NCBI RefSeq assembly: GCF_013315695.1
Contig: NZ_CP054353.1
Reading direction: 5' to 3' (one strand)
Source of the DNA: Escherichia coli
GTDB lineage: Bacteria > Pseudomonadota > Gammaproteobacteria > Enterobacterales > Enterobacteriaceae
DNA: 64,000 nt
How positions within the stretch are numbered: the stretch's first letter is position 1; each line of letters starts with the position of its first letter. The notes beneath the pieces were generated by a model, which saw only the letters and a program-made list of their open reading frames with translations, had not been told where the DNA came from and ran no database searches. A program made the position numbers and the translations under genes. Below, piece by piece: positions 40,112-52,574 of this stretch.

Positions 40112-40137
40112 AAAAAGCGCCGCACGGCGCTTTTTTT
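40112..40137. terminator. Bidirectional rho-independent terminator between rpmE and yiiX
   Basis: aaaaaagcgccgcacggcgcttttttt: GC stem flanked by A and T runs. Confidence 0.7.
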
Positions 40138-40157
40138 GTGCCTGAATTTTGGTCGTA

Positions 40158-40766
40158 TTACCACGAAAACAGCGGCCATTCTTTGGCGACCGTAGTGAGT
40201 TGTGGCGCATCGAAAACGGCTTGGGGTGAAACTACCGTTTCCTCAAGCGGAATATTTTTGCCGTAGCGTTCTTTGAGCTTCGCCTGGACCAGCGGGTTGC
40301 TGAGATCGAACTCTTTCAACTTCTGCTGTTCGCCTACGCGCATTCCCAGCGCATTCTGATAAACCTTCCACACCACTTCCGAACAGTACTGGCGATCGTC
40401 GCTCCACGAGAAGCTGAAATCGTACGGTTTGCCGAGATAACGTTTTGCCGTTTGCGCCAGTTTTTGCTGTTGTTCAACACTCAGTCCGCCTTCAACGCGG
40501 CGAACAACGTATTTGCCCTTTTCACCATGGGCAATCCACTGCTTGAGCGGGGTGTATTTCACCGGGCCGACCGCTTCAAAAACGTAGGGCTTTTTGTTAC
40601 GCATCACCAGCATACCGGTGTGGCTGTAATCGGAATGGGTCGCCAGTTGGATCGCTTTACTTTGCGATGAGCGAGAGATTTGAAAGATGATGTCGCCAGT
40701 TTGCGGCTGCCAGGCAAAGGCAGGCACAGAAACCAGCAGGCTGAGGATCAGTAGCCTGTATTTCAT
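40158..40766 (-). CDS. yiiX: Putative peptidoglycan peptidase / NlpC-P60-like protein YiiX
   Basis: 202-aa ORF with signal peptide MKYRLLILSLLVSVPAFA. Confidence 0.85.
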   Translation of the reverse strand: MKYRLLILSLLVSVPAFAWQPQTGDIIFQISRSSQSKAIQLATHSDYSHTGMLVMRNKKPYVFEAVGPVKYTPLKQWIAHGEKGKYVVRRVEGGLSVEQQQKLAQTAKRYLGKPYDFSFSWSDDRQYCSEVVWKVYQNALGMRVGEQQKLKEFDLSNPLVQAKLKERYGKNIPLEETVVSPQAVFDAPQLTTVAKEWPLFSW

Positions 40767-40825
40767 CGTTAAACGTCCATGTATGAAAAAAGCGGCTGGT
40801 TAACTCCGCGCCGCTCTTTTCCGCT

Positions 40826-41143
40826 TTAGTATTCCCACGTCTCCGGGTTAATCCCCATCTCACGCATGATCTCTTTTGCCGCTTCCGGGATTTCGTCGCT
40901 GCGCTCTTTACGCAGGTCGGCATCATCCGGCAAAGGTTGCCCGGTAAAGGCATGCAGAAACGCTTCGCACAGCAGCTCGCTGTTGGTAGCGTGACGCAGG
41001 TTGTTCACCTGACGACGCGTGCGTTCATCGGTGAGGATTTTTAACACCTTAAGAGGAATGGAAACCGTAATCTTTTTGACTTGTTCACTCTTCTTGCCGT
41101 GCTCAGCGTATGGGCTGATATATTCGCCGCTCCATTCAGCCAT
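40826..41143 (-). CDS. metJ: Methionine repressor MetJ
   Basis: ORF 40826..41281 trimmed to [46 protein letters not shown] for 105 aa. Confidence 0.95.
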
Positions 41144-41331
41144 GAGATACTTAATCCTCTTCGTCAATAAATTGAGACCAGACCACACAGTTAATGTGGG
41201 TACTGACCGTAAACCCGCATAGTTTACCGTACAGGCGCTACCGTGACATCGTGTAATGCACCTGTCGGCGTGATAATGCATATAATTTTAACGGCTATTT
41301 GGGATTTGCTCAATCTATACGCAAAGAAGTT

Positions 41332-41368
41332 TAGATGTCCAGATGTATTGACGTCCATTAACACAATG
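41332..41368. promoter_or_regulatory. Tandem met boxes (MetJ operator) in the metJ/metB divergent region
   Basis: agatgtcc agatgtat tgacgtcc: consecutive 8-bp repeats close to the AGACGTCT consensus. Confidence 0.7.
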
Positions 41369-41419
41369 TTTACTCTGGTGCCTGACATTTCACCGACCAA
41401 GCCCAGGGAACTTCATCAC

Positions 41420-42580
41420 ATGACGCGTAAACAGGCCACCATCGCAGTGCGTAGCGGGTTAAATGACGACGAACAGTATGGTTGCGTTGTCCCTCCCATC
41501 CATCTTTCCAGCACCTATAACTTTATCGGATTTAATGAACCGCGCGCGCATGATTACTCGCGGCGCGGCAACCCAACGCGCGATGTGGTTCAGCGTGCGC
41601 TGGCAGAACTGGAAGGCGGTGCTGGTGCAGTACTTACTAATACCGGCATGTCCGCGATTCACCTGGTAACGACCGTCTTTTTGAAACCTGGCGATCTGCT
41701 GGTTGCGCCGCACGACTGCTACGGCGGTAGCTATCGCCTGTTCGACAGCCTGGCAAAACGCGGTTGCTATCGCGTGTTGTTTGTTGATCAAGGCGATGAA
41801 CAGGCATTACGGGCAGCGCTGGCAGAAAACCCCAAACTGGTACTGGTAGAAAGCCCAAGTAATCCATTGTTACGCGTCGTGGATATTGCGAAAATCTGCC
41901 ATCTGGCAAGGGAAGCCGGGGCGGTGAGCGTGGTGGATAACACCTTCTTAAGCCCGGCATTACAAAATCCGCTGGCATTAGGTGCCGATCTGGTGTTGCA
42001 TTCATGCACGAAATATCTGAACGGTCACTCAGACGTGGTGGCTGGCGTGGTGATTGCTAAAGACCCGGACGTTGTCACTGAACTTGCCTGGTGGGCAAAC
42101 AATATTGGCGTGACGGGCGGCGCGTTTGACAGCTATCTGCTGCTACGTGGTTTGCGAACGCTGGTGCCGCGTATGGAGCTGGCCCAGCGCAACGCGCAGG
42201 CAATTGTGAACTATCTGCAAACCCAGCCGTTGGTGAAAAAACTGTATCACCCGTCGCTGCCGGAAAATCAGGGGCATGAAATTGCCGTGCGCCAACAAAA
42301 AGGCTTTGGCGCAATGTTGAGTTTTGAACTGGATGGCGATGAGCAGACGCTGCGTCGTTTCCTGGGCGGGCTGTCGTTATTTACGCTGGCGGAATCATTA
42401 GGGGGAGTGGAAAGTTTAATCTCTCACGCCGCAACCATGACACATGCAGGCATGGCGCCAGAAGCGCGTGCTGCCGCCGGGATCTCCGAGACGCTGCTGC
42501 GTATCTCCACCGGTATTGAAGATGGCGAAGATTTAATTGCCGACCTGGAAAATGGCTTCCGGGCTGCAAACAAGGGGTAA
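41420..42580 (+). CDS. metB: Cystathionine gamma-synthase
   Basis: ORF 41243..42580 trimmed to MTRKQATIAVRSGLNDDEQYGCVVPPIHLSSTYNF for 386 aa; PLP-dependent. Confidence 0.95.
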   Translation: MTRKQATIAVRSGLNDDEQYGCVVPPIHLSSTYNFIGFNEPRAHDYSRRGNPTRDVVQRALAELEGGAGAVLTNTGMSAIHLVTTVFLKPGDLLVAPHDCYGGSYRLFDSLAKRGCYRVLFVDQGDEQALRAALAENPKLVLVESPSNPLLRVVDIAKICHLAREAGAVSVVDNTFLSPALQNPLALGADLVLHSCTKYLNGHSDVVAGVVIAKDPDVVTELAWWANNIGVTGGAFDSYLLLRGLRTLVPRMELAQRNAQAIVNYLQTQPLVKKLYHPSLPENQGHEIAVRQQKGFGAMLSFELDGDEQTLRRFLGGLSLFTLAESLGGVESLISHAATMTHAGMAPEARAAAGISETLLRISTGIEDGEDLIADLENGFRAANKG

Positions 42581-42582
42581 AA

Positions 42583-45015
42583 ATGAGTGTGATTGCGCAG
42601 GCAGGGGCGAAAGGTCGTCAACTGCATAAATTTGGTGGCAGTAGTCTGGCTGATGTGAAGTGTTATTTGCGTGTCGCGGGCATTATGGCGGAGTACTCTC
42701 AGCCTGACGATATGATGGTGGTTTCCGCCGCCGGTAGCACCACTAACCAGTTGATTAACTGGTTGAAACTAAGCCAGACCGATCGTCTCTCTGCGCATCA
42801 GGTTCAACAAACGCTGCGTCGCTATCAGTGCGATCTGATTAGCGGCCTGTTACCCGCCGAAGAAGCCGATAGCCTTATTAGCGCTTTTATCAGCGATCTG
42901 GAGCGCCTGGCGGCGTTGCTCGACAGCGGTATTAACGACGCGGTGTATGCAGAAGTGGTGGGCCACGGTGAAGTGTGGTCGGCGCGCCTGATGTCTGCGG
43001 TACTTAATCAACAAGGGCTGCCAGCGGCCTGGCTTGATGCCCGCGAGTTTTTACGCGCTGAACGCGCTGCGCAACCGCAGGTTGATGAAGGGCTTTCTTA
43101 CCCGTTGCTGCAACAGCTACTGGTACAACATCCGGGCAAACGTCTGGTGGTGACCGGGTTTATCAGCCGTAACAACGCCGGTGAAACGGTGCTGCTGGGG
43201 CGTAACGGTTCCGACTATTCCGCGACACAAATCGGTGCGCTGGCGGGTGTTTCCCGCGTAACCATTTGGAGCGATGTCGCCGGGGTATACAGTGCCGACC
43301 CGCGTAAAGTGAAAGATGCCTGTCTGCTGCCATTGCTGCGTCTTGATGAAGCCAGTGAACTGGCGCGTCTGGCGGCCCCCGTTCTTCACGCCCGTACTTT
43401 ACAGCCAGTATCCGGTAGTGAAATCGACCTGCAACTGCGCTGTAGCTACACGCCGGATCAAGGTTCCACGCGCATTGAACGCGTGCTGGCCTCAGGTACT
43501 GGCGCGCGTATTGTCACCAGCCACGATGATGTCTGTTTGATTGAGTTTCAGGTGCCCGCCAGTCAGGATTTCAAACTGGCGCATAAAGAGATCGACCAGA
43601 TCCTGAAACGTGCTCAGGTGCGCCCACTGGCGGTTGGCGTACATAACGATCGCCAGTTGCTGCAATTTTGCTACACCTCAGAAGTCGCTGACAGTGCGCT
43701 GAAAATTCTCGACGAAGCGGGATTACCTGGCGAACTGCGCCTGCGTCAGGGGCTGGCGCTGGTGGCGATGGTTGGGGCGGGCGTAACCCGTAACCCGCTG
43801 CATTGCCACCGCTTCTGGCAGCAACTGAAAGGCCAGCCGGTCGAATTTACCTGGCAGTCCGATGACGGCATCAGCCTGGTGGCAGTACTGCGCACCGGGC
43901 CGACCGAAAGCCTGATTCAGGGTCTGCATCAGTCCGTCTTTCGCGCGGAAAAACGCATCGGCCTGGTATTGTTCGGCAAGGGCAATATCGGTTCCCGCTG
44001 GCTGGAACTGTTCGCCCGTGAGCAGAGCACGCTTTCGGCGCGTACCGGCTTTGAATTTGTGCTGGCAGGCGTGGTGGACAGCCGCCGCAGCCTGTTGAGC
44101 TATGACGGGCTGGACGCCAGCCGCGCGTTAGCCTTCTTCAACGATGAAGCGGTCGAGCAGGATGAAGAGTCGCTGTTCCTGTGGATGCGCGCCCATCCGT
44201 ATGATGATTTAGTGGTGCTGGACGTTACCGCCAGCCAGCAGCTTGCTGATCAGTATCTCGATTTTGCCAGCCACGGTTTCCACGTCATCAGCGCCAACAA
44301 ACTGGCGGGAGCCAGCGACAGCAATAAATATCGCCAGATCCACGACGCCTTCGAAAAAACCGGGCGTCACTGGCTGTACAATGCCACTGTCGGTGCGGGT
44401 TTGCCGATCAACCATACCGTGCGCGATCTGATCGACAGCGGCGATACCATTTTGTCGATCAGTGGGATCTTCTCTGGCACGCTCTCCTGGCTGTTCCTGC
44501 AATTCGACGGTAGCGTGCCGTTTACCGAGCTGGTGGATCAGGCGTGGCAGCAGGGCTTAACCGAGCCTGATCCGCGTGATGACCTTTCCGGCAAAGACGT
44601 GATGCGCAAGCTGGTGATTCTGGCGCGTGAAGCGGGTTACAACATTGAACCGGACCAGGTGCGTGTTGAATCACTGGTGCCAACCCATTGCGAAGGTGGA
44701 AGCATCGACCATTTCTTTGAAAATGGCGATGAACTTAATGAGCAGATGGTACAACGGTTGGAAGCGGCCCGTGAAATGGGGCTGGTGTTGCGCTACGTGG
44801 CGCGTTTCGATGCCAACGGCAAAGCGCGAGTAGGCGTGGAAGCGGTGCGAGAAGACCATCCGCTGGCATCACTACTACCGTGCGATAACGTCTTTGCCAT
44901 CGAAAGCCGCTGGTATCGCGACAACCCGCTGGTGATCCGCGGGCCAGGTGCAGGGCGCGATGTCACCGCCGGGGCGATTCAGTCGGATATTAACCGTCTG
45001 GCGCAGTTGTTGTAA
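42583..45015 (+). CDS. metL: Bifunctional aspartokinase II / homoserine dehydrogenase II
   Basis: 810-aa ORF directly after metB. Confidence 0.96.
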   Translation: MSVIAQAGAKGRQLHKFGGSSLADVKCYLRVAGIMAEYSQPDDMMVVSAAGSTTNQLINWLKLSQTDRLSAHQVQQTLRRYQCDLISGLLPAEEADSLISAFISDLERLAALLDSGINDAVYAEVVGHGEVWSARLMSAVLNQQGLPAAWLDAREFLRAERAAQPQVDEGLSYPLLQQLLVQHPGKRLVVTGFISRNNAGETVLLGRNGSDYSATQIGALAGVSRVTIWSDVAGVYSADPRKVKDACLLPLLRLDEASELARLAAPVLHARTLQPVSGSEIDLQLRCSYTPDQGSTRIERVLASGTGARIVTSHDDVCLIEFQVPASQDFKLAHKEIDQILKRAQVRPLAVGVHNDRQLLQFCYTSEVADSALKILDEAGLPGELRLRQGLALVAMVGAGVTRNPLHCHRFWQQLKGQPVEFTWQSDDGISLVAVLRTGPTESLIQGLHQSVFRAEKRIGLVLFGKGNIGSRWLELFAREQSTLSARTGFEFVLAGVVDSRRSLLSYDGLDASRALAFFNDEAVEQDEESLFLWMRAHPYDDLVVLDVTASQQLADQYLDFASHGFHVISANKLAGASDSNKYRQIHDAFEKTGRHWLYNATVGAGLPINHTVRDLIDSGDTILSISGIFSGTLSWLFLQFDGSVPFTELVDQAWQQGLTEPDPRDDLSGKDVMRKLVILAREAGYNIEPDQVRVESLVPTHCEGGSIDHFFENGDELNEQMVQRLEAAREMGLVLRYVARFDANGKARVGVEAVREDHPLASLLPCDNVFAIESRWYRDNPLVIRGPGAGRDVTAGAIQSDINRLAQLL

Positions 45016-46109
45016 TCCTGAGCCAGAGAAAGCAGTATTTGCGTAACGCGCCCTGCGGAAAGCGGGGTGCTGTGAGTAAATACTGCTTGTTTATGTAGCC
45101 AGTCGATAAAATGTCTGCTGGTTGCGAAAGAGAGCATTACAGCTTTGCTGTTATTTCCGCCCGTTAATGCACATACCATTTTACGATTTTTGCCCTGAAC
45201 CCAGAGTTGCCACTGATTTTTCCACCAGCCGTGATAAGTTTTTCCCTGAAAACGCCAGGGCGTATTATCGGTATAGTCAGCTATTTCCTCTTCAATAAAC
45301 CAAATTTCACCTTGCTGTTGGCGAAACAGTTCTGCCCAGGCCGTAATAATCGCACCTCTTAAAAAACACTCGTGTGAAATTACATGTGTTTTTACTGTAG
45401 GGAATAAAATATTCAGTACTCTAAAATGCCCGTGCGCTGTGATAACCGGACGCAGAATAACACCTTTAGCATTGCGTTTGAGCGCTGCGCTGCCATACTG
45501 AATTTCATCAAACTGACTGCGGCGTAGAAATTGTGCTTCGCGCATATCAACGCGTTGTACAATATTACTCTCGTGTAACTCTGGTTCTGCATTTCCTCTG
45601 TATCGATAATACAGACTTTCTCCAGCCTGATGCTGCGTGTAATTAGTAGAAAGATGAAGAATATTACCGCGAAGAGCATCAAAACTGATTAAAACATACA
45701 GTTTCTGCCCGCCGCTGGCTCCCTGAAATGGCACCAGAAGAGCAACCGTTTCGATTATTTCAGGAGGCGTTATTTCTTTCTGATATTGTTTAGGTGTCCA
45801 GACTTTTTTGCAGTTACGACATTGAATGCGTTGCGACCCCTGTGGATTGTGGCCATAACAAATCGTCTTTGTGCCATAACATACCGGGCAGAAATGACCT
45901 TTCTCAGTTGCAAAAGTAGATAAGTGAACTGACAACCAGTCACGAAATTGCTGTTCGTCAAACAACGGCGGGTAACTTCCACATGCCCGACAGTGCAGTG
46001 CCGGATAACCCAGTCGATAGTCTGGCCAGCTGTAATCTGTCGAAGTTGGCTGCCCTAAATTACGGCAACCAAACGACTTGCAGGCATTAATCGTAAACAG
46101 AGTCGACAT
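44979..46109 (-). CDS. Uncharacterized protein with two N-terminal CxxC...CxxC zinc-ribbon-like motifs; absent from the K-12 metL-metF junction
   Basis: 376-aa ORF; Cys pairs in CKSFGCRNLG ... CRACGS and CPVCYG ... CRNCKK; 3' end overlaps the metL 3' end by 37 bp (convergent); no confident family assignment. Confidence 0.5.
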   Translation of the reverse strand: MSTLFTINACKSFGCRNLGQPTSTDYSWPDYRLGYPALHCRACGSYPPLFDEQQFRDWLSVHLSTFATEKGHFCPVCYGTKTICYGHNPQGSQRIQCRNCKKVWTPKQYQKEITPPEIIETVALLVPFQGASGGQKLYVLISFDALRGNILHLSTNYTQHQAGESLYYRYRGNAEPELHESNIVQRVDMREAQFLRRSQFDEIQYGSAALKRNAKGVILRPVITAHGHFRVLNILFPTVKTHVISHECFLRGAIITAWAELFRQQQGEIWFIEEEIADYTDNTPWRFQGKTYHGWWKNQWQLWVQGKNRKMVCALTGGNNSKAVMLSFATSRHFIDWLHKQAVFTHSTPLSAGRVTQILLSLAQDYNNCARRLISD

Positions 46110-46235
46110 ATATCACCAACGATTTCACAAGGTCGTTGATTTTGTCCGGCAACGCTCCCTTGTGGATGTGATTGCTCTCACATAAATAATTCTTTCAGAA
46201 CGTAATGTAGCAATCCTTTATCTCACTGGAAGGGA

Positions 46236-47795
46236 TTGTTTATGAAAATTAAAATGCTTGCTGCGGGTATCGCATTAACACTGCCGTTTTGGGCTTGCGC
46301 CAAAGATGTCACCATCATTTATACCAACGACCTCCATGCACATGTAGAGCCTTATAAAGTGCCGTGGATTGCTGACGGTAAACGAGATATTGGCGGCTGG
46401 GCAAATATCACTACGCTTGTTAAACAAGAAAAAGCTAAAAACAAAGCGACCTGGTTTTTTGATGCGGGTGACTATTTTACCGGGCCGTATATCAGCAGCC
46501 TGACTAAAGGCAAGGCGATTATCGATATTATGAATACCATGCCATTCGATGCGGTCACTATAGGTAATCATGAATTTGATCACGGCTGGGACAATACGTT
46601 ATTACAGTTGAGTCAGGCAAAATTCCCGATTGTGCAGGGTAATGTTTTTTATCAGAACAGCAGTAAATCATTCTGGGATAAGCCCTATACCATCATTGAA
46701 AAAGACGGCGTGAAAATTGGCGTGATTGGTTTGCACGGTGTATTTGCCTTTAATGATACGGTATCTGCGGCAACGCGAGTGGGTATTGAGGCGCGTGATG
46801 AAATTAAATGGCTACAACGTTATATCGATGAACTCAAAGGCAAGGTTGATTTGACCGTTGCGCTGATTCACGAAGGTGTTCCGGCCCGCCAGTCCAGTAT
46901 GGGGGGCACAGATGTGCGCCGCGCACTGGATAAAGATATTCAGACGGCAAGTCAGGTGAAAGGGCTGGATATTTTGATCACCGGGCATGCACATGTGGGT
47001 ACGCCGGAACCGATTAAAGTCGGCAATACGCTCATCCTCTCCACTGACAGCGGTGGGATTGATGTCGGTAAACTGGTACTGGACTACAAAGAGAAGCCGC
47101 ATGATTTTACGGTGAAAAACTTCGAGCTTAAAACCATTTACGCCGACGAGTGGAAGCCCGATCCGCAAACAAAACAGGTGATCGACGGCTGGAATAAAAA
47201 GCTTGATGAAGTGGTGCAACAAACGGTCGCGCAATCGCCGGTTGAATTAAAACGTGCCTATGGTGAATCGGCTTCCCTCGGGAACCTGGCGGCTGATGCT
47301 TTACTGGTAGCGGCGGGTAAAAACACCCAATTGGCGTTAACCAACTCTGGCGGCATTCGCAATGAGATCCCCGCAGGGGCGATTACGATGGGCGGCGTCA
47401 TCAGTACCTTCCCGTTCCCCAACGAACTGGTGACGATGGAACTCACGGGTAAACAATTACGCAGTTTGATGGAACACGGCGCAAGTTTAAGTAATGGCGT
47501 TTTACAGGTATCGAAAGGCCTGGAAATGAAGTACGACAGCAGCAAACCGGTTGGTCAGCGGGTAATCACACTGACTCTGAATGGCAAACCCATTGAAGAT
47601 GCGACAGTTTATTCTATTGCCACCCAGAGTTTCCTTGCTGATGGTGGAGATGGTTTTACCGCCTTTACCGAAGGGAAAGCGCGTAACACAACGGGCGGTT
47701 ATTACGTTTATCACGCCGTGGTTGATTACTTCAAAGCGGGTAACACCATCACGGATGAACAGATCAACGGTATGCGCGTGAAAGATATCAAGTAA
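46236..47795 (+). CDS. Secreted bifunctional metallophosphatase / 5'-nucleotidase-like protein (UshA/CpdB family)
   Basis: 519-aa ORF; signal peptide [20 protein letters not shown]; calcineurin-like motifs DLHAH, GDYF, GNHEFD, GHAH; C-terminal 5'-nucleotidase-type motif NSGGIR. Confidence 0.7.
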
Positions 47796-48103
47796 AAGTA
47801 CGTATTGAGTTGATTCATTTGTTTGTTACCCGTTGATTTTGCAGATCCAGTATTCGGCCTACGCGAGGGCGCAGGCCGAATCAGATGCCTTAGCATCACC
47901 ATCCGGTGGCAGGACGTTGTTTTTCGAATAAGCCCAGGTGTCGCTGTGTTGTCAGAATATCAGTCAAAACGTGCGAGGTGGATTGCGCTATAGAGAAATC
48001 TTTTATCGCCTCTAATTAAGATGAGTTTTTTTCAACTTCCCTGATTTTTCCTCACCATCATTGGTCATTTTTCGGTTGACGCCCCTCGGCTTTTCCTTCA
48101 TCT

Positions 48104-48150
48104 TTACATCTGGACGTCTAAATGGATAGATGTTCACAACACAACATATA
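48104..48150 (+). promoter_or_regulatory. metF promoter met-box array
   Basis: acatctggacgtctaaatggatagatg contains GACGTCT-type repeats about 50 bp upstream of metF. Confidence 0.6.
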
Positions 48151-48173
48151 ACTACAAGCGATTGATGAGGTAA

Positions 48174-49067
<894 letters not shown>

Positions 49068-49289
49068 ATACTGTGACTTTTGTGAAAATCACACTGCGAT
49101 CACAAATTTTAAACAGAGCACAAAATGCTGCCTGAAATGCGAGTGAGAAAATAAGGTAGTCAGCCTCGTTTTCTCCCTCATTTCTTGAAGGATACGAATC
49201 TAAAACCCTTTTTTATAAAGTATTTGTCCGAAATCGGACATAATCAAAAAAGCTTAATTACGATCAATTTGATCTACATCTCTTTAACC

Positions 49290-51575
<2,286 letters not shown>

Positions 51576-51668
51576 TCTGACCTTCTTCAGCGACTGCCTT
51601 TCAGGCAGTCGCTGAAGTTTCTTTACCGGCGTATAGTGTCCACAGGAAAACTACACACTGGATCTCTC

Positions 51669-52574
51669 ATGTCTGCCGCAGGAAAGAGCAACCCACTGGC
51701 AATCAGTGGCCTGGTTGTGCTCACACTTATCTGGAGTTATAGCTGGATTTTCATGAAGCAAGTCACCAGCTACATCGGTGCCTTCGACTTTACCGCCTTA
51801 CGCTGCATTTTCGGCGCTCTCGTTTTATTCATCGTCCTTTTATTACGTGGTCGCGGAATGCGCCCGACACCGTTTAAATACACCTTAGCCATTGCCCTGT
51901 TACAAACCTGCGGGATGGTCGGCCTGGCGCAGTGGGCGCTGGTCAGCGGAGGAGCGGGGAAGGTGGCAATCCTGAGCTATACCATGCCGTTCTGGGTGGT
52001 GATTTTCGCCGCGTTGTTTCTCGGTGAACGCCTGCGACGTGGGCAATATTTCGCGATTCTGATTGCCGCTTTCGGCTTATTTTTGGTGTTGCAGCCGTGG
52101 CAACTCGATTTCTCTTCGATGAAAAGCGCCATGCTGGCAATCCTCTCCGGTGTGAGTTGGGGGGCGAGCGCGATTGTTGCTAAACGTCTGTATGCCCGCC
52201 ATCCGCGCGTGGATTTATTGTCGCTAACATCCTGGCAGATGCTGTATGCGGCGCTGGTGATGAGCGTGGTCGCTTTACTGGTGCCGCAACGTGAAATTGA
52301 CTGGCAACCCACCGTGTTCTGGGCGCTGGCCTACAGTGCGATTCTGGCGACAGCGCTGGCGTGGAGCTTATGGTTGTTTGTATTGAAAAACTTGCCTGCC
52401 AGTATTGCCAGCTTAAGCACACTGGCCGTTCCCGTTTGCGGCGTACTCTTTTCCTGGTGGCTGCTCGGTGAGAATCCGGGGGCCGTTGAAGGTAGCGGTA
52501 TTGTGCTGATTGTGCTGGCACTGGCGCTGGTGAGCCGTAAGAAAAAAGAAGCCGTCAGTGTAAAAAGGATCTGA
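51669..52574 (+). CDS. yijE: EamA/DMT-family inner-membrane transporter YijE
   Basis: ORF 51636..52574; start at [26 protein letters not shown] for 301 aa. Confidence 0.88.

Follow-up and report, generated by a model that had tools for sequence, protein, structure and literature searches.

How a stretch of about 3.0 kb came to lie between metL and metF in an Escherichia coli chromosome, where K-12 has only a short spacer, and whether methionine repression of the neighbouring genes is left as it was, are the questions raised by this locus. We analysed 64,000 nt of E. coli chromosome (GCF_013315695.1, contig NZ_CP054353.1), hereafter the window, for which an initial annotation had described intact tandem met boxes at metJ/metB and metF. 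Dimers of the repressor MetJ, when loaded with SAM, bind runs of such boxes cooperatively. In the reading that we favour, with a probability of about 0.88, the two arrays are the MetJ operators classically described for the metJ-metBL-metF cluster of E. coli, the slot between metL and metF lies outside the metF control module, and K-12 most likely lost the gene pair that occupies the slot here. The methionine genes are laid out as follows:

40826..41143, minus strand, metJ CDS, methionine repressor of 105 aa (ORF list; RefSeq annotation of the 100% identical record NZ_OZ547117.1)
41420..42580, plus strand, metB CDS (annotation of the identical record; sequence reading)
42583..45015, plus strand, metL CDS (ORF list, annotation, K-12 BLAST)
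48177..49067, plus strand, metF CDS, 296 aa (ORF list; annotation)

The metJ gene is intact within the window, and an E. coli blood isolate that is 100% identical over a 3.5-kb query (44800-48300) carries annotated metJ, metB, metL and metF.

Met boxes were scored with the matrix and thresholds of Augustus and Spicer (PMC3228920, Table 3), under which a site passes if its boxes together reach the score of the consensus, 12.58 bits, and each box at least a quarter of it. Applied to K-12 sequences, the matrix reproduced the published values for metB (31.2 bits, 63 bp from the ATG) and for metF (24.95 bits, 41 bp from the ATG). Exactly two sites passed in the 64-kb window, at the two loci where tandem 8-bp boxes had been announced:

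41325..41356, unstranded, metJ/metB operator, four in-phase met boxes AGAAGTTT AGATGTCC AGATGTAT TGACGTCC (31.18 bits, published matrix)
48104..48135, unstranded, metF operator, four scoring met boxes TTACATCT GGACGTCT AAATGGAT AGATGTTC (26.17 bits; 30/32 bases as in K-12)

Thirty simulated windows held a mean of 0.5 passing sites and a top total of 16.7 bits, far below both arrays (31.2 and 26.2 bits), and the same two loci ranked top by plain consensus count. A short degenerate consensus could nevertheless be matched by chance: octamers resembling AGACGTCT with at most one mismatch were not enriched across the window (10 found against 15 expected), and the plain count at metF (25/40) equalled, without exceeding, the maximum of 200 simulations, all of which were surpassed by the counts at metJ/metB (24/32 and 28/40). 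Since single octamers are not enriched, the signal must lie in the in-phase tandem arrangement, and tandem and weighted scoring replaced the single-octamer search as the test. Each locus holds four adjacent, in-phase 8-bp boxes resembling AGACGTCT, and both arrays lie within the distance typical of the met regulon, ~75 bp or less from a start codon. Against a chance origin stand the weighted scores, far beyond the simulations, the conservation of the box columns across nine genera (0.93-0.96) and, decisively, orthology with the K-12 operators listed in the literature, to which 32/32 bases at metB and 30/32 at metF are identical; the probability of mere resemblance is thus next to nil, and both arrays are real, known MetJ operators.

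At metJ/metB, the boxes score 6.8, 9.0, 8.6 and 6.9 bits (31.2 in total) and the metB ATG follows 63 bp past the end of the array. The K-12 metJ/metBL operator comprises the same 32 bp, with four boxes, the same total and the same distance to the metB ATG (Augustus and Spicer 2011, Table S1), and stands beside the same divergent metJ gene in an intergenic region that is 99% identical (358/361 positions); the box stretch is unchanged, and the three substitutions fall elsewhere in the 361 bp, at 41194, 41239 and 41398 of the window. The initial annotation had found the correct locus, but its span of 41332..41368 ran one base out of register, omitted the first box (41325-41332) and took in ATTAACAC, a non-box with a score of -14.5 bits.

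The metF array is slightly stronger than its K-12 counterpart, with box scores of 5.1, 10.3, 3.6 and 7.1 bits that sum to 26.2 against 24.9, and ends 41 bp before the metF ATG. Position and register are those of K-12 and boxes 1 and 2 are identical, whereas box 3, which differs at 48123, reads AAATGGAT in place of the K-12 AAACGGAT (-1.4 bits) and box 4, which differs at 48134, reads AGATGTTC in place of AGATGTGC (+2.6 bits), together a predicted net gain of about 1.2 bits. In the cross-genus alignment, the T in box 4 of the window is the state of the other genera, and the K-12 base is therefore the derived one. The exact allele, with a score of 26.19 bits, has been catalogued for strains UMN026 and SMS-3-5 (Augustus and Spicer 2011, PMC3228920), and it recurs at ≥99% identity in 527/5426 E. 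coli genomes (~10% of complete genomes). The K-12 metF operator, which has four scoring boxes in Augustus and Spicer (2011), was classically described with five (PMC3274233). The description of the arrays as intact thus holds without reserve at metJ/metB, where the operator is identical to that of K-12, and at metF with the footnote that two box positions differ; the metF span that had been given, 48104..48150, has the right start but extends 15 bp beyond the last box that scores. Both operators are textbook cases and, with the metF allele itself on record, already known.

What separates this locus from K-12 lies further upstream. BLAST homology with K-12 stops at 45016, one base past the metL stop codon, and restarts at 48027, or at 48022 by eye, which leaves 150-155 bp to the metF ATG (48177); in every island-free E. 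coli genome the match begins at this same point. The intervening DNA is the following:

45017..48021, unstranded, variable segment of ~3.0 kb in place of the 197-bp K-12 metL-metF spacer (K-12 BLAST; multi-strain alignment)

No similarity was found between the K-12 spacer and this segment. When 47796..48176 was aligned to K-12, only the part from 48022-48027 onwards matched, with the operator, the putative promoter and the MetR-like sites kept, while 47796-48021 belongs to the variable segment and travels with the gene pair. The variable DNA had been placed upstream of the metF operator, which is where it lies (homology resumes at 48022-48027 and the operator begins at 48104), but the ~380 bp of native promoter said to remain comes down to ~155 bp shared with K-12 and conserved across genera. 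Within 48027-48176, 147/150 positions are identical to K-12. Upstream of the operator, three elements could be proposed:

48022..48034, unstranded, upstream MetR-like dyad TGAGTTTTTTTCA (one mismatch to TGAANNNNNTTCA; left edge of the conserved control region)
48042..48054, unstranded, second MetR-like dyad TGATTTTTCCTCA (from the alignment; two mismatches to the consensus; TGAATATTCCTCA in Salmonella arizonae)
48076..48104, plus strand, putative metF core promoter, -35 TTGACG (48076-48081), 17-nt spacer, -10 CATCTT (48099-48104) (sequence reading and conservation)

Conservation across genera rises at 48020 from about 0.5 to ≥0.75, and reaches 0.9-0.96 in the -35, -10 and box columns. As delimited by this alignment, the conserved metF control module comprises only ~157 bp (48020-48176), in which two MetR-like dyads come first, then the putative -35/-10 elements and the met boxes, and last the ribosome-binding site with the ATG. 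A strict sigma-70 consensus scan called no metF promoter in either the window or K-12, and the assignment of the hexamers therefore rests on sequence reading and conservation: all 14 aligned sequences share TTGAC and have either CATCTT or CATTTT. Both candidate hexamers are identical in K-12, from which the window differs by one change in the spacer between them (48087).

The MetR consensus TGAANNNNNTTCA is a 13-bp interrupted dyad, as quoted in PMC13393422. This pattern occurs in the window at chance frequency (29 found against 30 expected), so that the case for a dyad at metF is made solely by its conservation across genera: the upstream copy shows 0-1 mismatch at the aligned position in 13/14 sequences from nine genera, with a freely varying spacer. 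Two such dyads, of the type bound by the LysR-type regulator MetR, lie 20 bp apart upstream of the -35. Cowan et al. 1993 reportedly described a MetR site, or MetR regulation, for Salmonella metF, to which the second dyad presumably corresponds. In the first dyad, the left half reads TGAG instead of TGAA, a variant common to the window and the other island-bearing E. coli examined, and this half-site could weaken a MetR contact.

With its operator, putative core promoter and MetR-like sites all retained, the metF control region is complete. In the mechanism that we propose, SAM-loaded MetJ would bind each run of four adjacent boxes cooperatively. The metJ/metB run would act from within the divergent promoter region, and the metF run would start at the end of the putative -10 and span the likely transcription start, so that bound repressor would exclude RNA polymerase. 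The DNA from the metL stop codon to the control module would form a variable cargo slot, here filled by a zinc-ribbon gene and a 5'-nucleotidase gene; as this slot ends just outside the control module, control of metF by MetJ and MetR should match that of K-12, and unchanged MetJ control is what we most reasonably infer.

The new upstream context could, by contrast, alter metF expression quantitatively relative to K-12, either by read-through from the same-strand nucleotidase gene, which would be independent of MetJ at initiation, or by the weakened TGAG half-site. The nucleotidase gene is followed by a strong hairpin:

47852..47881, plus strand, hairpin with 13-nt arms and a 4-nt loop, about -20 kcal/mol, 57 bp past the nucleotidase stop codon, without U-tract and not called a terminator by the scan

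From the nucleotidase gene to metF (47796-48176), the terminator scan predicted no canonical intrinsic terminator. The scan also misses a K-12 hairpin, whose loop exceeds 8 nt, and ViennaRNA folding was used instead; it places this hairpin, followed by a T-run (-14.3 kcal/mol), directly upstream of the shared module in K-12. In the window, by contrast, no terminator-like hairpin followed by a T-run separates the nucleotidase gene from the metF promoter, and read-through could for this reason occur. In addition, the first dyad combines its mismatch with an A for T at 48035 in the extended palindrome, and three more substitutions fall in the metF promoter and operator. The stable hairpin after the nucleotidase stop codon nevertheless speaks against this explanation, as do the slightly higher score of the metF operator compared with K-12, the presence of the TGAG variant in Klebsiella spallanzanii as well, and the fact that a third of E. 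coli genomes, as well as other genera, keep the arrangement, which is compatible with normal methionine control. We consider a quantitative shift in metF expression quite unlikely, and retain K-12-like control by MetJ and MetR. A structured RNA in the 231 bp specific to the island was also considered and rejected, as the fold of 47790-48040 was no more stable than its shuffles (z = -0.96) and Rfam gave no match in 40500-49500.

The segment itself carries two divergent genes, with 132 bp of intergenic DNA between them at 46110-46241:

44979..46109, minus strand, uncharacterised 376-aa protein, named 'cytoplasmic protein' in the source, with two Cys4 zinc-ribbon motifs (invariant cysteines)
46242..47795, plus strand, 517-aa metallophosphatase/5'-nucleotidase of the UshA-like family (Pfam PF00149 and PF02872; NCBIfam; RefSeq annotation)

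This pair was found in 1837/5426 E. coli genomes (34%), and 20 loci of 8 further genera or species groups carry it at the same site between metL and metF; the hosts belong to Citrobacter, Klebsiella, Kluyvera, Superficieibacter, Pseudocitrobacter, Salmonella enterica subsp. arizonae and Escherichia whittamii. Across these loci, the nucleotidase is 88-91% identical, comparable to KatG (90-91%) and MetL (91-95%), and the divergence of the pair parallels that of the flanking genes. The distribution is patchy within E. coli, yet syntenic in Citrobacter, Klebsiella, Kluyvera and S. arizonae. The Pseudocitrobacter nucleotidase is 98% identical to that of the window while its flanking genes reach 89-94%, and this greater closeness suggests some horizontal exchange of the pair.

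These observations bear on the polarity of the difference. The segment had been presented as an insertion between metL and metF, and a recent event of this kind in the present lineage, leaving ~380 bp of K-12-type promoter untouched, would explain why K-12 and about two thirds of complete E. coli genomes lack it, and would account for its somewhat AT-rich composition (GC 0.42-0.52, against 0.57-0.60 in metL) and for the weak transposase-type zinc-ribbon signature of one of its proteins. However, only 150-155 bp upstream of metF are common to K-12 and the window, and there is no clean empty site in K-12, where the unrelated 197-bp spacer points to replacement instead of clean insertion. Furthermore, no integrase, recombinase or transposase family of Pfam, PADLOC or NCBIfam exceeded its threshold in the segment, no tRNA gene was found in 38000-52000, and searches for flanking direct or terminal inverted repeats, att-like ones included, returned only short repeats (11-17 nt), all of them away from the two junctions. 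The segment thus departs from a classical mobile island, which would carry an integrase, a tRNA gene and flanking repeats, and the synteny of the pair in many enterobacterial genera, diverging in parallel with its flanks, suggests old residence and later loss. A recent insertion is, on this evidence, very improbable. The gene pair is common and probably old, if not ancestral, and because it is syntenic across genera, diverges with its flanks and lacks mobile-element hallmarks, the K-12 arrangement looks most likely like a loss, so that the word insertion probably has the polarity wrong.

The consequences are of little importance beyond correct annotation, but they do correct it in three respects: the conserved metF control region is ~157 bp only and begins at a MetR-like dyad, the genes beside metF form a widespread and probably ancestral pair, and K-12, if derived at metL-metF, gives the wrong polarity when taken as the native reference. 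In genome scans, a difference from K-12 need not be an insertion.

The segment also resembles the chromosomal indel regions of E. coli that vary between core genes, being likewise polymorphic for presence or absence (1837/5426) and sharing its slot with alternative cargo. At least five contents were seen: the K-12 spacer, the two-gene form, a five-gene form whose cargo includes a tsx-like channel and three nucleotidases, a PTS EIIBC and LacI-type pair in E. whittamii, and a LysR-type and CMD-like pair in Citrobacter. A broader reading, which we regard as doubtful, would make this a long-lived cargo slot of the Enterobacteriaceae whose edge is pinned by a functional MetR dyad and, as a separate matter, would make the zinc-ribbon protein a regulator of the nucleotidase gene. 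If it were true, the right edge of the slot would be fixed within a few bases by the TGAA-N5-TTCA dyad serving as the upstream MetR contact for metF, and the island-bearing alleles, with their TGAG half-site and without the K-12 terminator, would amount to a quantitative rewiring of metF in one third of E. coli.

The zinc-ribbon protein belongs to a family of 265 enterobacterial proteins (profile search) whose entries read only 'cytoplasmic protein'. It matched no Pfam or PADLOC family and no relative of solved structure, and its AlphaFold model, built on a 20-sequence alignment, was too poor for structure searching (pLDDT 47). Its C-terminus was compared with the long-type allele, and the last nine codons of its gene are antisense to the 3' end of metL. 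Its invariant cysteines are C10/C15/C40/C43 and C74/C77/C97/C100, and its matches to IS1/IS1595 zinc ribbons stayed below threshold (21 bits against a cut-off of 28); on the broader reading, it could have arisen from a transposase and regulate the divergent nucleotidase gene by binding DNA. The 517-aa protein, a periplasmic 5'-nucleotidase, has an N-terminus that reads like a signal peptide.

The 3.5-kb query 44800-48300 was 100% identical to the E. coli chromosome NZ_OZ547117.1 (a blood isolate); of 5426 complete E. coli genomes, 5425 gave a match. Genes were assigned from the annotation of NZ_OZ547117.1, combined with an ORF list and reading of the sequence:

40826-41143, minus strand, metJ
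41420-42580, plus strand, metB
42583-45015, plus strand, metL
44979-46109, minus strand, hypothetical 376-aa (zinc-ribbon) protein
46242-47795, plus strand, metallophosphatase/5'-nucleotidase, 517 aa
48177-49067, plus strand, metF
3' of metF, katG

The window held 10 single AGACGTCT-like octamers where 15 were expected, hence no enrichment, so that the test that counts is their tandem, in-phase arrangement. By number of matches to (AGACGTCT)n, the metJ/metB and metF loci were the top two across the whole window, the former (24/32 and 28/40) exceeding 200/200 simulated windows and the latter (21/32 and 25/40) lying at the upper edge of 200 simulations. Exactly two sites in the 64 kb passed when scored with the information-weight matrix that Augustus & Spicer published in 2011 (PMC3228920, Table 3) and judged by their acceptance rule, in an implementation that reproduced the K-12 values of their Table S1; simulated sequences gave a mean of 0.5 passing sites and a highest total of 16.7 bits.

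41325-41356, metJ/metB operator, AGAAGTTT AGATGTCC AGATGTAT TGACGTCC, 31.18 bits (PMC3228920 matrix)
48104-48135, metF operator, TTACATCT GGACGTCT AAATGGAT AGATGTTC, 26.17 bits (PMC3228920 matrix)

As the only two passing sites, both met-box arrays proposed in the initial annotation are real, with adjusted limits: its 41332..41368 fell near the first operator but was off register by one base, omitting the first box and including ATTAACAC (-14.5 bits), while its 48104..48150 started correctly but ended 15 bp too far. In K-12, the metB and metF operators score 31.2 and 24.95 bits, with four boxes each, 63 and 41 bp from the ATG, respectively (PMC3228920, Table S1). Traditionally, metF is given five boxes (PMC3274233), a count that takes in a flanking octamer with a negative score under the PMC3228920 matrix. 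All central points are already in the literature.

The metJ-metB intergenic region was identical to MG1655 at 358 of 361 positions, with an unchanged met-box stretch, and the 150 bp shared upstream of metF carried three substitutions relative to K-12. These were located at 48087, in the -35/-10 spacer, at 48123 in box 3 (T in the window versus C in K-12; -1.4 bits) and at 48134 in box 4 (T versus G; +2.6 bits), leaving the metF operator at a net +1.2 bits with the published matrix. The exact 32-mer is the UMN026 and SMS-3-5 entry of the 2011 table (26.19 bits; Augustus & Spicer). Other genera have T at the variable box-4 position, indicating that the K-12 base is derived there, whereas the box-3 T of the window is itself derived and also occurs in E. 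whittamii. The metF promoter-operator stretch was recovered at at least 99% identity in 527-528 of 5426 genomes. Carriers of this window-type stretch include IAI39, SMS-3-5, CE10 and one ST648 strain, which belong to phylogroups D/F.

The extent of native sequence preceding metF was smaller than the ~380 bp initially proposed. Aligning 47796..48176 to the K-12 metF upstream region did not give the expected result, as K-12 matched only from 48022-48027: homology ended at 45016, one base past the metL stop codon, and restarted at 48027 by BLAST, or at 48022 by eye via the shared TGA of a dyad, leaving 150-155 bp in common before the ATG. In all island-free genomes (E. coli without the gene pair), the match to the 48020-48180 query began at its eighth base, the same junction as in K-12, and 47796-48026, the 231 bp past the nucleotidase stop codon, was common only to other carriers of the pair. 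The K-12 spacer is 197 bp long and had no similarity to the window segment; on sequence reading, it contains a hairpin with a T-run behind it as well as a REP-like element. This unrelated spacer makes the difference a replacement. Within it, RefSeq places a minus-strand 44-aa 'hypothetical protein' in many K-12-type genomes (L004 1357-1491, a metL-metF locus from one of them) but not in MG1655; this gene call probably reflects misannotation of the REP/terminator region.

To delimit the metF control region, the 300 bp preceding the gene were aligned for 14 sequences: the window, K-12 and twelve loci representing nine genera. Through 48019, majority-base conservation stayed near 0.5, as in sequence that cannot be aligned; from 48020 it rose to 0.75-0.84, reaching 0.9-1.0 across the -35, -10, boxes and ribosome-binding site. 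The first conserved element was dyad 1 (TGAGTTTTTTTCA, 48022-48034), at which 13 of 14 sequences had 0-1 mismatch to TGAANNNNNTTCA, the consensus quoted for MetR (PMC13393422). Its half-sites are kept and its five spacer bases vary freely, the pattern expected for a spaced-dyad protein site; as a bare pattern, the MetR-type dyad occurred at chance frequency in the window. A second, weaker dyad lay 20 bp downstream (48042-48054; TGATTTTTCCTCA in the window, TGAATATTCCTCA in S. arizonae). Cowan et al. (1993) reportedly described regulation of metF by MetR in Salmonella, and one or other dyad may correspond to the MetR footprint published for that gene. Further downstream, sequence reading identified a candidate core promoter, TTGACG (48076-48081), a 17-nt spacer and CATCTT (48099-48104), that was conserved in 14/14 sequences and not called by a strict promoter scan. 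The met boxes would start at the last base of this putative -10 and span the start site, an overlap that fits repression through promoter occlusion.

It is reasonable to conclude that control of metF is probably unchanged. Its expression might nevertheless differ quantitatively from K-12 owing to upstream context, for which some room exists: K-12 has a hairpin with T-run (-14.3 kcal/mol) directly upstream of the shared module, whereas the window has a hairpin without U-tract after the nucleotidase gene (47852-47881, -20 kcal/mol) and no predicted terminator, and its dyad 1 reads TGAG instead of TGAA. We consider such a difference unlikely and retain unchanged control as the preferred reading.

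The gene pair had been described as an insertion, a reading that is not supported. In E. coli, the locus exists in three states, the K-12 spacer, the 2-gene form of the window and a 5-gene form in which two more nucleotidases accompany a tsx-like channel; the 2-gene and 5-gene forms are jointly present in 1837/5426 genomes. Scanning one genome per species recovered 30 zinc-ribbon protein loci, 20 with the pair between metL and metF, the others being paralogous clusters elsewhere in the genome. These 20 include Citrobacter braakii, youngae, portucalensis and werkmanii, Klebsiella pneumoniae, oxytoca and spallanzanii, Kluyvera, Superficieibacter, Pseudocitrobacter, Salmonella enterica subsp. arizonae and E. 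whittamii. Nucleotidases of the Citrobacter, Klebsiella and S. arizonae loci were 88-91% identical to that of the window, alongside 91-95% for MetL and ~90% for KatG. The variable segment (45017-48021) revealed no tRNA gene, junction repeats or recombinase, and its GC content was 0.42-0.52, versus 0.57-0.60 in metL. Combined, this synteny, parallel divergence and lack of mobility features make long residence with loss in K-12-type lineages more likely than recent insertion. Some horizontal exchange may still be visible in Pseudocitrobacter, whose nucleotidase (98%) is closer to the window than its flanking genes (89-94%). Across genera, the slot always met the metF module at the conserved dyad, including where, in several genera, extra cargo follows the nucleotidase gene: a PTS EIIBC and a LacI-family regulator in E. 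whittamii (L008 5139-8317), and a LysR-type regulator and a carboxymuconolactone-decarboxylase-like (CMD-like) ORF in C. braakii (L018 6742-8316).

The 517-aa nucleotidase carries Metallophos and 5_nucleotid_C domains. The 376-aa protein matched no Pfam or PADLOC family, had no relative among solved structures, and its AlphaFold model (pLDDT 47) was too poor for structure search. It belongs to an uncharacterised enterobacterial family with 265 members, which carry the label 'cytoplasmic protein', and has two invariant Cys4 motifs and sub-threshold matches only, to IS1/IS1595 zinc-ribbon models; it could be a DNA-binding protein that derives from a transposase. Its gene is collinear with the long-form allele up to residue 367, and the final nine codons run antisense to the metL 3' end, so the 2-gene form has lost the gene's own terminus and the spacer. 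In the window, this gene and metL are convergent, with a 37-bp overlap (44979-45015) and no terminator in between; the long-form allele (L006, NZ_CP039404.1) has a stop codon of its own, and metL is followed there by a clean terminator. An imperfect 27-nt inverted repeat (45030-45088; 74% complementary, 5-nt loop), starting 15 bp past the metL stop codon within the zinc-ribbon gene 3' end, may be the metBL terminator.

The zinc-ribbon gene is always divergent from the nucleotidase gene, and the 132-bp region between them in the window holds a terminator-like hairpin with T-run (46117-46138; CAACGATTTCACAAGGTCGTTG ATTTTG). Because of this position, the hairpin may not be a terminator but an operator-like dyad. 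Longer clusters (L006 12179-19369, also loci L015, L016 and L033) combine a tsx-like nucleoside channel with as many as three or four paralogous 5'-nucleotidases; they occupy either metL-metF or a second site in the same genome (L009 and L016 belong to one strain), and look like a nucleotide/nucleoside scavenging module.
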